From Candidatus Latescibacterota bacterium (GTDB taxonomy: Bacteria > Latescibacterota > UBA2968 > UBA8231): 64,000 bases of DNA. Positions 1 through 60,214 of the stretch are shown one piece after another. The DNA lies in NCBI GenBank assembly GCA_965243025.1, contig CBDETY010000003.1, positions 6,368,001-6,432,000 on the forward strand. The letters run 5' to 3'. A program made the position numbers and the translations under genes. The notes under the pieces were generated by a model that did not search any database, had not been told where the DNA came from, and saw only the letters and a program-made list of their open reading frames with translations. Every line of letters starts with the position of its first letter. Positions within the stretch are counted from its first letter, which is position 1.

Positions 1-904
1 TGCGAATCCCAGGGATGATCTCCCGCTGCACCTGGTAGGGTAGGCCCGACAGCGACGCCCCGAACAGCAAAGCGCCCAGTGAGCCGTGGAGTCCCACCAA
101 CTCCGCGCCGTACACTGTCAGGAAGAGCAAGCCGAGCAGCAGACCCAGGGAGAGCTGCGGCACCTGGATCACCCGCTGCAACCGCGCCACCAAAGGCGGC
201 AGCACCCGCGACGACAATACCCAGGTCACCACCGAAAAACCGGCGACTTTGCCCAGCAGAATCAGTATGCCGAGTGGCGAGACCTGGTGGGCGTGTTCGC
301 CGATGCTGAAGCCGATCAGCAGCAGGGCGATCAACTCGGCGATGATCACCACCGTGAAGATCTGCAGTCCAACCGGCTGTTTCAGGTATCCGCCGTCGGT
401 CAGCACTTTGGCCACGATGCCCAGACTGGTCATCGACAGCACGCCGGCCAACGCCAGCGACTCGGTGAAATTCAGTTTCAGTCCGAAATCGAAGACCACA
501 TCGGTGGTGACCAGCATCGAAATGCTCAATGACACGGTCACCGACAGTACGGCGGCGAGGAAGTAATGGCCTTTGAGGGACGACATGAAACTGGAGATAT
601 CCACTTCGTCCAGGCCGATGAGGAAGAAAAAAATGAACACCCCCAGCGCCAGAACCAGCTCGAGGTGCAGCGAAGACTCGATCCACCAGACGCCGGTCAG
701 TTCCATGACCGGCCCGAGAAGCATGCCTGCCGCCGCATAGGCGATGATGGAGTTCAACCGCAGCCTGCGAAAAACGCCCTCGGCCAACTTGGCAACGATG
801 ATGAGCATCCCGACAGTCAACAGCGATTGGTGCAGTTCATTCGTGTGCTCAGCGAAACTGAACAGATCCACCATCTTCTGGAGCGAGAAGCCTTCCGTGG
901 ACAT
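1..904 (-). CDS. cation:proton antiporter (CPA2/Kef-NapA type), runs off the window start
   Basis: Not in the ORF track. Manual translation from ATG at 904 (GGAG upstream) gives MSTEGFSLQKMVDLFSF...LLTVGMLIIVAKLAEG...AGMLLGP...FFFLIGLDE...LSMTSLGIVAKVL...GALLFGASL, a polytopic CPA2-like membrane protein. Confidence 0.8.
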   Translation of the reverse strand, partial: MSTEGFSLQKMVDLFSFAEHTNELHQSLLTVGMLIIVAKLAEGVFRRLRLNSIIAYAAAGMLLGPVMELTGVWWIESSLHLELVLALGVFIFFFLIGLDEVDISSFMSSLKGHYFLAAVLSVTVSLSISMLVTTDVVFDFGLKLNFTESLALAGVLSMTSLGIVAKVLTDGGYLKQPVGLQIFTVVIIAELIALLLIGFSIGEHAHQVSPLGILILLGKVAGFSVVTWVLSSRVLPPLVARLQRVIQVPQLSLGLLLGLLFLTVYGAELVGLHGSLGALLFGASLSGLPYQVQREIIPGIR

Positions 905-53901: not shown

Positions 53902-54753
53902 CTACTGAAAATCCTTGCCGGGAATCGTGCCCCAGGGGACCGCTTCCGCATCGCCCTCGTACACCGGCAGGTACGGTTCGGTGATGTGCCGCGTATGTTC
54001 GACCCAGTCAGCCCATTCGGACCTGCTGGTGATGTGATCGCGGATCAACGCCTTGACTTCGCCGGGCATGTCGTCGTAGGCGGGCCAGTACCAGAGAGTG
54101 AGCACTGTGCGCCGCTGGCCGGTTCGGTTGGCGCGGGCGGAATGCAGCAGGCGCGAATCGCCGATGACGACATCGCCGGCGCGAACGGGTACATCGACCT
54201 CACCCTCGACCTGTTGAAAAGCGAGATGATCCATGTCGGTTGCGTTGATCACGTCGTCGTCGTCCCTTGGCCGCATGTCGTGCAGGGGGTGGCGTTTCAG
54301 GTGGGAGCCGGGAATCAGACGCAGGCAGCCGTTGTGCAGGTTCGTGTCGACCAGATAGTACATCAGGAAGTACTGCTGCGGCTGGTTGGTGTAGCTGATC
54401 GGATGGTCCCACAACACGCCGTCGTGGTGCCAGTACAACGGCGGGCTTTGCGGAGGCTTGCTGATCACGAAACCGCTCCAGAATCTGGGGGAATCGAATC
54501 CCAGTTCCGCGAGAGCGGCTATCGCGCCGGGATAAATCAGGAGTTCGGTGAAGGTCGGGTGCGGGCAGGTCCAGTAGGGAATCAGGCAGCCCTGCGAGCG
54601 GTGCTGCTCGAAGTGCTCCTCGTCCTGTTGCGCGATCATCCATTCGCTCATGGCGTTCAGTTTCGCCACCATCTCCGGCGCCAGCACGTTCTCGAAGACG
54701 CAGAAGCCGTCGCGCATGAGTTGATCGCGTTTCTCCCTGGCGGCGATCGGCAT
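53902..54753 (-). CDS. phytanoyl-CoA dioxygenase family protein
   Basis: DGFCVFENVL, WHHD, NGCLRLIPGSH and AGDVVIGDSRLLH motifs. Confidence 0.9.
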   Translation of the reverse strand: MPIAAREKRDQLMRDGFCVFENVLAPEMVAKLNAMSEWMIAQQDEEHFEQHRSQGCLIPYWTCPHPTFTELLIYPGAIAALAELGFDSPRFWSGFVISKPPQSPPLYWHHDGVLWDHPISYTNQPQQYFLMYYLVDTNLHNGCLRLIPGSHLKRHPLHDMRPRDDDDVINATDMDHLAFQQVEGEVDVPVRAGDVVIGDSRLLHSARANRTGQRRTVLTLWYWPAYDDMPGEVKALIRDHITSRSEWADWVEHTRHITEPYLPVYEGDAEAVPWGTIPGKDFQ

Positions 54754-54778: not shown

Positions 54779-55516
54779 TCACGCCCTCCCGCCCGTCAGA
54801 ATCGACACCACCTGCGGGACGGCCTCTTCCACGCTTTCATCGAACTCGTCCCCTTCCACGGGCGCGGCGTGCGCGCCCAGTTCGATGTTCCTGTAGCCGG
54901 CAACGCCGTCGAAGGTACTCGACCAGGCGCCGGCACCGCCGGGCCTGATTCCGGCTTCCAGCTCCTTCCGGGGATACTCCCACCGCAGGTCCCTGCCGCC
55001 GTAGCGGACCCGGTCCCCCTCCGTCACGCCGCTCATCCTCATCCTGCGGTGCACCCCGAAGTGGATCAGCCTGCGATGCACTGCGTCGGACTGCGGGCCG
55101 GAGTCCTCCCAGCCCTCGACCAGGAAGTTCCCCGTTGCGTGCGACAGGCTGAACCCGTCGCCGTCGCGTGCGACCATCGGGACCCTTCCCGCGGCGGTGA
55201 TGTAGGCGGTCGGTACGCCTCTCAACTCGAACTCGAGCATGTCGTGCAAACTGCACGAACTGGCCCCGCATCAGTCGACGACCCCCATTACAAGCCCGTC
55301 GCACCGGGGAACGATCTCCTCGAGAAGCTTCTTCGAGCAGACGCGGTAGGGAGACGTCTTTTTCCACGGTCCGGCCACACTCGCGCCGTGCTCTGCCGCG
55401 AGCCGCTCCCCGACCGCTTCGAGGACGGCTCCCGCGGTGCGCTTTCCCGGGTCCAGAAGTCCGATCCTGGCACCGTTCAGGCGGGTCAGCCGGGATGCGG
55501 GTTCGATTCCTGGCAC
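54779..55516 (-). CDS. UGSC-family selenoprotein (Sec at UGA 55273-55271, codon 82) with OCT-like insertion
   Basis: GTG after AAGGAG; track ORFs 55271..55624 and 54779..55249 are in frame across one TGA, reading DGLVMGVVD-U-CGASSCSLHDMLEFELRGVPT; hairpin downstream of the UGA. Confidence 0.8.
55242..55258 (-). promoter_or_regulatory. bacterial SECIS-like hairpin
   Basis: UCGUGCA-GUU-UGCACGA, a perfect 7-bp stem whose G-led loop begins 20 nt after the UGA. Confidence 0.7.
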
Positions 55517-55536
55517 AGGTATGCTCCTTTCTGCTT

Positions 55537-55950
55537 TTACTCGGCTGTTCCCTCTCGGGTATCGTCCGAATTGTCGGCGTTTTCTTCGCGTTCTATGACT
55601 AAAGTATTGGATGGCTTGTAGCATGTCAGAAGGTACGAAACTTCATTTGGTTCATTCAGCCGAAAGGATTGCATGTCGTCATTACCGGAATCAGTAATAA
55701 TTTTGGACAAGGATTCTCCTTTTTGGTGCAATACAACCATCGCCCCAAGGCAGTCGGAGTATCCGACTTTCCTGATTCTCCTGAATACCGGAAGGTCGAC
55801 CTCGTCGTTGCGGCGAGTTTTTATCATCGTCGAATCACTTGAAACTTCATGACGAATATAACGAGCGGTTACTGCAGCTTCCTCGTGGTCATCATTCGAT
55901 GAGCAACCGGAAGAAATCACGGCAACCACGCACAGTAATTTCCATGACAT
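55537..55950 (-). CDS. hypothetical lipoprotein (AT-rich)
   Basis: MSWKLLCVVAVISSG|C lipobox-like; AGGAG RBS. Confidence 0.65.
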   Translation of the reverse strand: MSWKLLCVVAVISSGCSSNDDHEEAAVTARYIRHEVSSDSTMIKTRRNDEVDLPVFRRIRKVGYSDCLGAMVVLHQKGESLSKIITDSGNDDMQSFRLNEPNEVSYLLTCYKPSNTLVIEREENADNSDDTREGTAE

Positions 55951-56317
55951 TTATATCTTCTCCTTATGGGACTGGTTTAATCAGAGAAGCATACTTCTTC
56001 TACAAAGGGACGCGAGAGTACCGATCCCGTCCTCCCGCCAATCCCGATTCTAACGGGGACAGCAATCCCCTGTCAACACCCTGCTTCGGGAGCCGGGCCT
56101 CGCCCTGGGTGTCAGTGAGGCAATTGTTGCATGGTTTTCAATCCTGGTATTTTTCGTGAGATTACCGGAGAATCAAAGGACGCAGGCTTCCGCAGGGGGA
56201 GCAACGCTTCGCTGGAGCAAGGGGCGCCAGGCGGCCGCCAGCGAAGGCGGTTTCGAGGGTATCCAGCGCCAGGCAGGGGTTTACTGAGACGATGGCAGTC
56301 CTTCCGGAAGAGTCGCG

Positions 56318-58568: not shown

Positions 58569-60214
58569 TCACCGCCATTCGTCGACGGACGCGGTGGCCG
58601 CGTGGGGGGCGCCGAAGATGCGCCAGTACCCGTTGGTTTCGCCTCCGACGACGACGACCTGGATCTGGTCCTTCGGCCAGATGCGGATGAGCTCCTCCTC
58701 TTCCGCTTCCAGCATCGCCGCCCAGGGCTCCTCGCCGACGAGCGCCCTCGGCTCGACGTAGTTCTCGATCAGCTGGTAATCCCAGTAGACCCCGGCGCGC
58801 ATGGTGCCGTTCTCGTGGACCCAGTCGACGAGCTGTTCGACGGTGTGGAAACCGCCGCGGTCGACGAACTGGCGGGCGGTGATCGGGTCGAGGACGAAAG
58901 TGGGCGCCTCGTGCGGGTCCATGCCCCGCAGCATCTGGATGACGTGAGTCTGCCAGTGCTTTTCGCGCAGCCCGAGAGTGAAGGCGGTGGAGCGGCAGCC
59001 CGGGAAAACGCTGACGGTGCTGTCTCCTTTGGCGAAGCCCTTCCGGACGTGGAAGGGATCCCACGGACTGCGCTCTTCGTTCTCGGCGTAGCAGATGCTG
59101 CTGAAGGCGTAGCCGTTGCCCTGCGAGCCGAGGTAGGTGTGCAGCGGCAGCGAACCACCCTGGCCGTTCTGGGACAGCAGGCCGTAGGCGCGCCCGATGG
59201 TGGCGTTGGCGTGGTTGTAGGGTCCCATGGCGCCGACGCCGGAGTTCATGCCGATCTCTTCGCGGAAGGGCCCGTTGACGACCGCCATGGCCGCGGCCGA
59301 GCTGGTCGTGCTCGGGCGCGCCGTGACCTGCGTCGATGCCAGCGCGAGAATGGCGGGAAAGTATTCCGGCCGCGCCCCGGCCATGACGGCGTTGACGGCG
59401 ACCTTCTCCACCGTGTACTCCCAGGCCTCGCGCGGGCCCGTGGGCCGCATCTGTCCGACTGTTTCATCCGGGTCCCGGCTCGTGCCCCTGAGCATCGCCT
59501 CGACGCGGGCCTCGGTCGGCAGCACGATCGGCAGCTTGTCGGTCCAGTTCTCGCGCAGGAAGAGCTCGTGGAGGTTGTCCTCCGAGTCCGGCTCGCACAG
59601 CCGCGGGGTGGAGCGGTCGAAGCTGACGACCTCCGTCTCCCCGGCGCTGAGCGGGCGGGTCAGGGCCTCCATCACCTCGGTCATGAACGGACGCCCGGTG
59701 ACGGGATCGGCGCCGTCGACGTAAGCCCGCAGCTCGGCCGGCGACTTGCCCATCACCGGCTGGGGGACGAAGACGAACCGCTGCTTCGGCATGCCCCGCG
59801 CCAGGCCTGGGCCCGCGCCAGGGGTTCGAAGATGTCGGTCTGGACGGAGGCTGTCGGCACTCCGTACTCGGTTTCAACTGTGATGCACTGGTCGGCGACC
59901 GCCGGCGCGCACGTGCTTCAGTGGCCGACGCCGATGACGGCGGCATCTCCCTGCTGTCTGATCTCCTCGTAGAGCGCCTCGTCGCGGGTGGTGTAGACGT
60001 TCGACTTGCGGCGCACCTCCACGTTGATCCCCGGGCGGTGCTCGCCGAACCAGTTACCCATCTGGCGCATGAGGATGTCGCCGTCGTCGAAACGGCAGTC
60101 GACGAGGTAGACGGTGCGGCCTTCGAGCGAATCGGGACGAGGGGCCATGCCCAGTTGCTCCCTCTTCGGCGGGTGCCCCATCGGGTTGAGGACGGTGATC
60201 CTGTTGTCGCCCAT
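58569..60214 (-). CDS. UGSC-family selenoprotein fused to a TDxLPIVxPT domain (Sec at UGA 59920-59918, codon 99; one-base frameshift near 59805)
   Basis: DAAVIGVGH-U-STCAPAVADQCITVETEYGVPTASVQTDIFEPLARAQA; restoring one C joins it to (LARG)MPKQRFVFVP...WTDKLPIVLPT...TVEKVAVNAVMAGARPEY...ANATIGRA. Confidence 0.8.
59885..59917 (-). promoter_or_regulatory. bacterial SECIS-like hairpin
   Basis: GCAC...CGGC-GGUC-GCCG...GUGC; G-led loop at +18 after the UGA. Confidence 0.55.

Follow-up and report, generated by a model that had tools for sequence, protein, structure and literature searches.

The DNA analyzed here, called the window throughout, is a stretch of 64,000 nucleotides (nt) from a Candidatus Latescibacterota genome, and the element in question is a gene on its minus strand that encodes a selenoprotein related to the UGSC family. 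Positions 54782-55516 form a single frame of 245 codons that contains an in-frame TGA only once, at codon 82. Translation table 11 splits this frame into two open reading frames (ORFs), 55271-55624 and 54779-55249. As proposed in an earlier note made from the sequence alone, these two neighboring ORFs are one selenoprotein gene, cut in two by gene callers at the selenocysteine (Sec) codon. The peptide around the TGA reads GLVMGVVD-U-CGASSCSLHDMLEFELRGVPT.

One reading frame across an in-frame UGA

The read-through protein was searched against 168 genomes of the phylum, of which 45 gave a match, with 49 places listed. All 21 other full-length places (19 genomes; at least 241 of 245 residues; 67-91% identity) hold exactly one TGA, as does each of two further copies that are truncated by contig ends. 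Another 22 places, 29-39% identical over residues ~7-110, are canonical UGSC genes, again with one TGA each. Three fragments among the 49 places are without a TGA, two in genome G059 and one in G106.

The window copy and 19 orthologs with fetched DNA form a set of 20 sequences that are 81-97% identical in DNA. All 20 comprise 245 codons and begin at the same position with GTG or ATG, preceded at the same distance by the ribosome-binding site AAAGGAG (AAGGGAG in 1/20). Pairwise differences at the first, second, and third codon positions amount to 1017/822/4283 upstream of the TGA and 3164/2431/7314 downstream of it. This third-position bias indicates coding both before and after the TGA. In addition, contigs of sequencing runs from two studies (X1 and X5) span the TGA with 0 differences to the window. 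Several of the runs holding parts of the stretch are labeled as sponge metagenome.

The encoded protein is a long variant of the UGSC selenoprotein family. The Pfam model UGSC (PF24696) spans the TGA, scoring 88.2 bits against a gathering score of 25 over residues 6-108. The family itself is known: Zhang and Gladyshev in their study of GOS metagenomes (PMC2398784), and two reviews that name it (PMC9312934, PMC13188914), describe the UGSC-containing protein as abundant in marine metagenomes, functionally uncharacterized, and carrying the motif UxxC or UGSC.

An exhaustive search of 1.84 billion representatives returned 175 hits at an E value of ≤0.001, with 148 new representatives. Of the listed hits, the 111 with a length of at least 120 amino acids (aa) were aligned; 9 are without the region, and 102 cover the Sec position. 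Cys occupies this position in 98 of the 102, so that homologs carry Cys or TGA at the site, which the earlier note had named as a check. Of the remaining four rows, three look misaligned or garbled, and the fourth, P0085, has a clear Ser. P0085 is a short-form UGSC relative that reads D-S-G-A-C-A-T-C-S-V-H-D and might be inactive or act differently. Furthermore, 22 of the 148 representatives are N-terminal pieces that stop at the residue right before the Sec position, and 8 are C-terminal pieces that start within ~12 residues past it. Breaks at this position are the signature of genes cut at the UGA. A search of the ESM Atlas with the Cys homolog P0034 gave UGSC clusters only, and a single-protein scan of genome contigs gave 11 matches, all close relatives. 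Two metagenome scans with the Cys homologs P0034 and P0040 gave no match.

These results bear on whether the TGA is instead a true stop, separating either two independent small genes or the persisting halves of a decaying gene. The two parts are adjacent and in frame, with one TGA between them in 21/21 full-length relatives; full-length homologs with Cys at the site exist, and the Pfam domain runs across the stop. The second part has no start codon with a ribosome site ahead of it, and its called TTG start falls within the hairpin described below. In the predicted structure, the protein would fold as one unit, with its last helix on the N-terminal core. A true stop is consistent with the two ORFs that table 11 yields and with public collections, which list the pieces apart: the 81-aa N-terminal piece P0036 ends exactly ahead of the TGA, and 30 of the 32 hits in public protein collections are 148-156 aa long and are confined to the part that follows the TGA. 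Decay also occurs in this setting, as seen from the frameshift in a nearby UGSC-fusion gene of the window and from the relative in G106 (locus L050), an internally deleted remnant. Overall, we regard a true stop as very improbable. The features of the gene, read as one selenoprotein frame, are listed in Table 1.

Table 1. Selenoprotein gene and adjoining features, in positions of the window.
Feature	Position	Strand	Remarks
Coding sequence of the 245-residue selenoprotein	54782..55516	-	GTG start 55514-55516; Sec at codon 82
Ribosome-binding site AAAGGAG	55524..55530	-	7 nt 5' of GTG
In-frame TGA, residue 82 read as selenocysteine	55271..55273	-	
Cys83 codon TGC, vicinal Cys	55268..55270	-	TGC or TGT in 20/20 orthologs
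SECIS-like hairpin	55242..55258	-	Stem 55252-55258 with 55242-55248, loop GUU 55249-55251; overlaps codons Ser86-Asp92
UGSC domain core, residues 6-108	55193..55501	-	PF24696; flavodoxin-like alpha/beta fold, Sec just past strand 3
Inserted Obg-C-terminal-like (OCT, DUF1967) domain, residues 112-178	54983..55183	-	Subfamily-level PF09269 and 1udx_A matches
Terminal stop TGA	54779..54781	-	TGA in 19/20 orthologs, TAA in 1
PhyH-family dioxygenase gene	53902..54753	-	PF05721, 89.8 bits

Hairpin and selenocysteine machinery

The UGA is followed by the hairpin TCGTGCA-GTT-TGCACGA, which resembles a selenocysteine insertion sequence (SECIS) and has seven perfect pairs and a three-base loop, GUU, led by G. 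The perfect 7-bp stem and G-led loop of the earlier note thus hold, but its distance of 20 nt needs correction: the stem begins 12 nt past the UGA and the loop G lies 19 nt past it. A stem loop with G in the apical loop 3' of the UGA is invariant in 20/20 orthologs, and no other nucleotide run without variation in the 735-nt gene is as long as its 17 nt (gene nt 259-275). Codons 87-91 (TCG TGC AGT TTG CAC), three of which are six-fold degenerate, show zero synonymous differences in 190 ortholog pairs, compared with a mean of 0.25 per 7-codon window. The codon window 85-91 has the third lowest synonymous diversity of 239 windows, and GAC and GAT alternate freely at the Asp codon just beyond the stem. 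Moreover, the core CGUGCA-GU[GU]-UGCACG is found at the same place in canonical UGSC genes that are ~30% identical in protein.

Two other parts of the gene are also strongly conserved in DNA. The second-longest invariant run in the 20 orthologs, of 14 nt, lies at 55458-55471 (gene nt 46-59) within G-L-L-D-P-G, and synonymous diversity is also very low at codons 1-7 and 171-177.

The genome encodes all four Sec components (selA, selB, selC, and selD) above curated cut-offs, which answers the call of the earlier note for the Sec machinery. The tRNA-Sec scores 69.7 bits and is called tRNA-SeC with anticodon TCA by ARAGORN; SelA scores 533.7 bits, SelB 320.2 bits, and SelD 361.8 bits, the latter with one TGA. 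SelD (G000:C3, L024 ~1528) is itself a selenoprotein with the motif K-T-C-G-U. Its gene carries the hairpin GAGCCC-GGUC-GGGCUC, with a 6-bp stem 11 nt past its own UGA, and the hairpin studied here resembles it in spacing and in a G-U-containing loop.

Bacterial SECIS elements of the Escherichia coli fdhF type have a hairpin a short way 3' of the UGA whose apical loop contains G and U. The window hairpin is alike in its position and in the G and U of its loop, and the hairpins of selD (11-nt spacer, GGUC loop) and of a second UGSC gene in the window (GGUC loop) match closely. It is unlike the fdhF type in that the loop is only GUU and the perfect 7-bp palindromic stem is without a bulged U.

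The UGA could also be read through in another way, by near-cognate insertion of Trp, Cys, or Arg or by a general reassignment of UGA, given that the residue at position 82 is known from the sequence alone, which does not tell Sec from another residue. UGA terminates the gene itself in 19/20 orthologs, so that it is not reassigned and acts as an ordinary stop here unless a hairpin follows. The complete Sec system, the conserved hairpin with the spacing of the selD element of the genome, and the Cys at the site in relatives, the usual signature of a Sec/Cys pair, all speak for Sec as well and make any other form of read-through extremely improbable. The recoding of UGA 82 is well supported.

A long UGSC subfamily with an inserted OCT-like domain

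The window protein has several features in common with the UGSC family, namely, Sec after the G-x-x-D strand end, the downstream motifs C-S-[LV]-H-D and E-x-R-G-[IV]-P-T, and the SECIS core CGUGCA-GUK-UGCACG. However, at 245 aa it is longer than the canonical Sec forms found (169-178 aa) and the Cys forms (mostly <200 aa), and it forms a separate, well-supported branch. Three narrower UGSC features are absent: the protein lies below the NCBIfam cut-off, lacks the eponymous Cys three residues after Sec (+3), and departs from the single-domain architecture.

The greater length is due to an inserted OCT-like domain, the main structural difference, which the earlier note had omitted. Nine full-length Cys homologs of 144-254 aa (P0034, P0039-41, P0049-52, and P0060) share this extra segment, which measures ~84 columns relative to canonical members and lies between strand 4 and the last helix. 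The Pfam model PF09269 (DUF1967) matches 23/26 subfamily members at an E value of ≤1, the best at 4.1e-12; the window protein alone reaches 14.1 bits against a cut-off of 27 (E value of 0.049). The subfamily profile matches Obg of Thermus thermophilus (1udx_A, residues 344-411) over 67 positions with an E value of 5.1e-6, and TIGR03595 matches in P0040 (5.4e-6) and P0034. In this comparison, residues 112-178 of the window protein align to residues 344-411 of Obg with the common motif G-[VIL]-x-x-A-L-R-x-x-G-x-x-x-G-D-x-V-R. In contrast to Obg, the domain is inserted inside the selenoprotein core and not appended to a GTPase. We know of no settled role of the OCT domain in Obg.

A tree of the N-terminal domain was built from 43 chosen rows, comprising 6 of the 20 orthologs with the vicinal U-C, all 9 long Cys forms, 25 of the 50 short Cys forms, and 3 canonical Sec forms. 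Long and short forms split at 100/98 support, and the U-C clade is one group (100/99) that adjoins P0034 (91/82). Judged from alignments, profiles, and this tree, the long UGSC forms are a distinct, well-supported subfamily with an OCT-like insert.

The AlphaFold model used here was computed with the more diverse subfamily alignment and has a mean predicted local distance difference test (pLDDT) score of 88.7 and a predicted template modeling score (pTM) of 0.88. Its core is flavodoxin-like, with strands at residues 17-22, 46-52, 74-80, and 103-108. Helix 3 (87-98) has Cys88 in its first turn, and Sec82 is placed just past strand 3. The insert (~112-180) lies between strands 4 and 5, and the final helix (222-241) packs onto the N-terminal core. 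A prediction from 24 mostly close sequences had left the insert unmodeled (pLDDT of 57) and gave generic rows only in Foldseek; a Foldseek search of the PDB with the model used here gave no match at an E value of ≤0.001.

At the active-site motif, the canonical Sec forms read D-U-G-S-C-x-x-C-S-[VL]-H-D, a pattern that the earlier note had given and that is seen in the canonical UGSC genes of the same phylum. The window clade reads D-U-C-G-A-S-S-C-S-L-H-D, likewise as the note had it, at the same length as the canonical motif and with U-C-G-A in 20/20 orthologs. Compared with the canonical Sec forms, only two positions differ, with Ala in place of Cys at +3 and Cys in place of Gly at +1, and the U/C-G-S-C tetrapeptide is absent from the window protein, which has U-C-G-A instead.

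Motif positions were counted in representatives with Cys at the Sec site, after one mis-registered row had been dropped. In 50 short Cys representatives, position +1 is Gly in 48, position +3 is Cys in 45, and position +6 is Cys in 11 and Trp in 19. The 9 long Cys representatives have Cys at +3 once and at +1 once, both in P0034 (C-C-A-C-S-A-C-C), and at +6 in 5 cases. P0034 is thus the only one of the 59 Cys-form representatives with a +1 Cys, and on these alignments the vicinal Cys is restricted to the window clade and this nearest Cys relative. Four long forms (P0043, P0050, P0051, and P0052) retain Cys solely at the Sec position, which is also the sole invariant Cys column in the 7-sequence long-form alignment (A3).

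These counts change how the motif of the window protein is to be understood. The earlier note had taken the vicinal U-C together with the Cys six residues after Sec as a replacement of the usual UxxC. The vicinal pair is present throughout the clade, but the loss of the +3 Cys runs through the whole long subfamily, so that the vicinal Cys is an addition within a single clade. Nor is the +6 Cys a replacement, since canonical Sec forms have the same residue (U-G-S-C-x-x-C). Its codon, UGC, lies within the SECIS stem, and its conservation in Sec forms may therefore owe as much to RNA as to chemistry. This position in the stem may explain why the +6 Cys is kept in Sec forms and often lost in Cys forms. 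In deriving a different redox chemistry from the motif, the earlier note goes further than these sequences allow.

The long U-C gene is patchy in distribution yet well conserved, with 81-91% protein identity across three GTDB families (f1, f3, and f9). It was not found by the read-through protein query in either of the two genomes of the same genus (92-93% complete), whereas G058 has three copies of it and G106 the above-mentioned remnant. This pattern suggests possible transfer and turnover of the gene.

Possible function and genomic context

Taken together, we consider it likely, with a probability of roughly 0.85, that the locus is a working selenoprotein gene of the long UGSC subfamily, in which Sec is inserted at UGA 82 and Sec82 serves as a redox nucleophile. 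Translation would start at the GTG at 55516, and the hairpin 12 nt downstream of the UGA would recruit SelB with Sec-tRNA(Sec) to codon 82, leading to the insertion of selenocysteine. Translation would then end at the terminal UGA, where no hairpin of this kind follows. Redox nucleophiles are typically found as a lone conserved selenol or thiol where a strand meets a helix, and from this we infer redox chemistry by analogy. Sec82 is placed in the loop that connects strand 3 to helix 3 and could act as the catalytic nucleophile of a thiol/selenol oxidoreductase that attacks an oxidized substrate; a selenenylsulfide with Cys83 or Cys88 could resolve Sec82, followed by re-reduction. The inserted OCT-like domain may provide a binding surface for recognition of a partner or substrate.

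Several observations weigh against this interpretation. The NCBIfam equivalog NF041046 is missed, with 62.3 bits against a cut-off of 125 and only model positions 2-94 of 147 matched. The folding energy of the hairpin is no better than that of shuffles (z of -0.37 over 76 nt and -0.90 over 48 nt), so that comparative evidence was taken for the hairpin instead. Within the 20 orthologs, the stem never varies and offers no compensatory change; as it is invariant and also encodes the conserved S-C-S-L-H, RNA and protein constraint are not fully separable. The pLDDT is lowest near the Sec loop, with a mean of 68 for residues 81-90. The wide VIA-align comparison gave only generic flavodoxin-like matches, the best being 8s7v_H (Z of 11.0, root mean square deviation of 3.4, 131 residues aligned), and excludes no family. 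Among the sequencing runs that hold the stretch, none is on record as RNA. Finally, Sec at position 82 is read from the DNA, and the enzymatic part is by analogy only; no characterized relative is known.

Rather than acting as a redox nucleophile, Sec82 could join Cys83, Cys88, Cys72, His91, and Asp92 in holding a metal or a cluster, whether Fe-S, Zn, or a soft metal (e.g., Hg or Cu). The protein would still be a selenoprotein, but it would bind or sense a metal and have no selenenylsulfide cycle. The invariance of C72, D81, U82, C88, S89, H91, and D92 across 24 Sec forms (alignment A1) fits such a site. So does the pattern C-x9-U-x2-C-x2-C of the canonical forms, the spacing of which resembles that of cluster-binding motifs. 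The protein in the best VIA row is part of an activation complex that bears a cluster, at a score barely above generic rows. However, C72 and the +3 and +6 positions are not conserved in the long-form Cys homologs, and with the single conserved thiol or selenol that P0043, P0050, P0051, and P0052 keep at the Sec site, no cluster can be held. The short Cys forms also argue against it, with Trp (19/50) more often than Cys (11/50) at +6. A metal site thus appears distinctly unlikely, and the redox nucleophile remains our preferred reading of Sec82.

A vicinal Cys-Sec redox pair is known from mammalian thioredoxin reductase (G-C-U-G). Similarly, the adjacent Sec and Cys of the window protein could close an eight-membered selenenylsulfide ring. 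The two systems differ in that the order in the window protein is reversed (U-C), the pair sits at an internal strand-helix junction and not in a flexible C-terminal tail, and the folds are unrelated.

Selenoprotein B of the glycine, sarcosine, betaine, and proline reductases (GrdB/PrdB; PF07355) was also considered. The GOS table (PMC2398784) gives UxxC as the motif of PrdB. No PF07355 match is listed in the 26 subfamily members at an E value of ≤1, a range in which HMMER filters drop most matches above ~0.1. A PF07355 search of the genome gave no match, but neither did the control genomes.

A more speculative, and on balance unlikely, extension is that the long UGSC forms make up a separate, undescribed class of selenoenzymes. 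In such a class, the OCT domain would dock a partner or substrate on the flavodoxin-like core, and the reversed U-C dyad of the sponge-associated clade would form a strained eight-membered selenenylsulfide switch. The enzyme might then serve PhyH/VOC oxygenases, for instance, by repairing or reducing an oxidized intermediate.

The genes around the locus include such oxygenases. The PhyH gene lies 25 nt past the stop of the selenoprotein gene, has its own GGAAAGGAG ribosome site, and is probably cotranscribed with it. Three arrangements of PhyH genes next to the orthologs are seen; in 6 of the 9 annotated loci, VOC/glyoxalase genes are found downstream in convergent orientation. The 6.8-Mb genome (G000) contains at least 152 PhyH matches over the cut-off, 8 of them within ~125 kb of the gene. 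Because of this very large expansion, the PhyH link is weak and is discounted as a functional clue. Directly upstream of the selenoprotein gene, a 137-aa ORF (55537-56076, minus strand) has a lipoprotein-like start (…VISSGC…) and no counterpart in the other loci. A sigma-70-like site lies at 56047-56076, with 11/12 positions matching.

A second UGSC-family selenoprotein gene lies 3 kb away on the minus strand (58569-60214), with its start at 60214 and a TGA at 59918-59920. Its motif is H-U-S-T-C-A-P-A-V-A-D-Q-C, and a GGUC-loop hairpin follows 13 nt past the UGA. In five related genomes, this gene runs in frame into a 407-aa protein of no known family (window 58569-59792). In the window, one base missing near 59803/59804 breaks the frame; the extra base is present in contigs of runs X6 and X8 and absent from those of runs X1 and X5. 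As the latter two come from two studies, the frame break looks real in this strain. A 45-48% identical homolog of the 407-aa partner lies ~450 nt upstream of a canonical UGSC gene in family f4, genus g31 (e.g., G072:C1:144175-145520). The partner is therefore found both fused and neighboring, and the link between UGSC and partner holds in both forms.

Our literature search found no paper on the long UGSC form, on DUF1967 in combination with a selenoprotein, or on Latescibacterota and selenocysteine; its coverage did not include Figure S1 of PMC2398784, which may show a related fusion. A 'UGSC/Unknown_1' fusion is mentioned for Figure S1A in the text of that study (PMC2398784), and it more likely corresponds to the second UGSC gene of the window than to the long form.

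As the UGSC family was already known, the gain is modest. The analysis adds a correctly read selenoprotein where public collections hold fragments or a 'hypothetical protein', and it extends a family that is abundant in aquatic metagenomes by a long branch whose architecture and Cys partners are different. Since only the Sec/Cys position is conserved family-wide, the family would work with a single catalytic nucleophile and not with a fixed UxxC pair. Moreover, the conserved C-S-x-H-D of the Sec forms overlaps the SECIS stem, so that part of what looks like a protein motif may be an RNA constraint.

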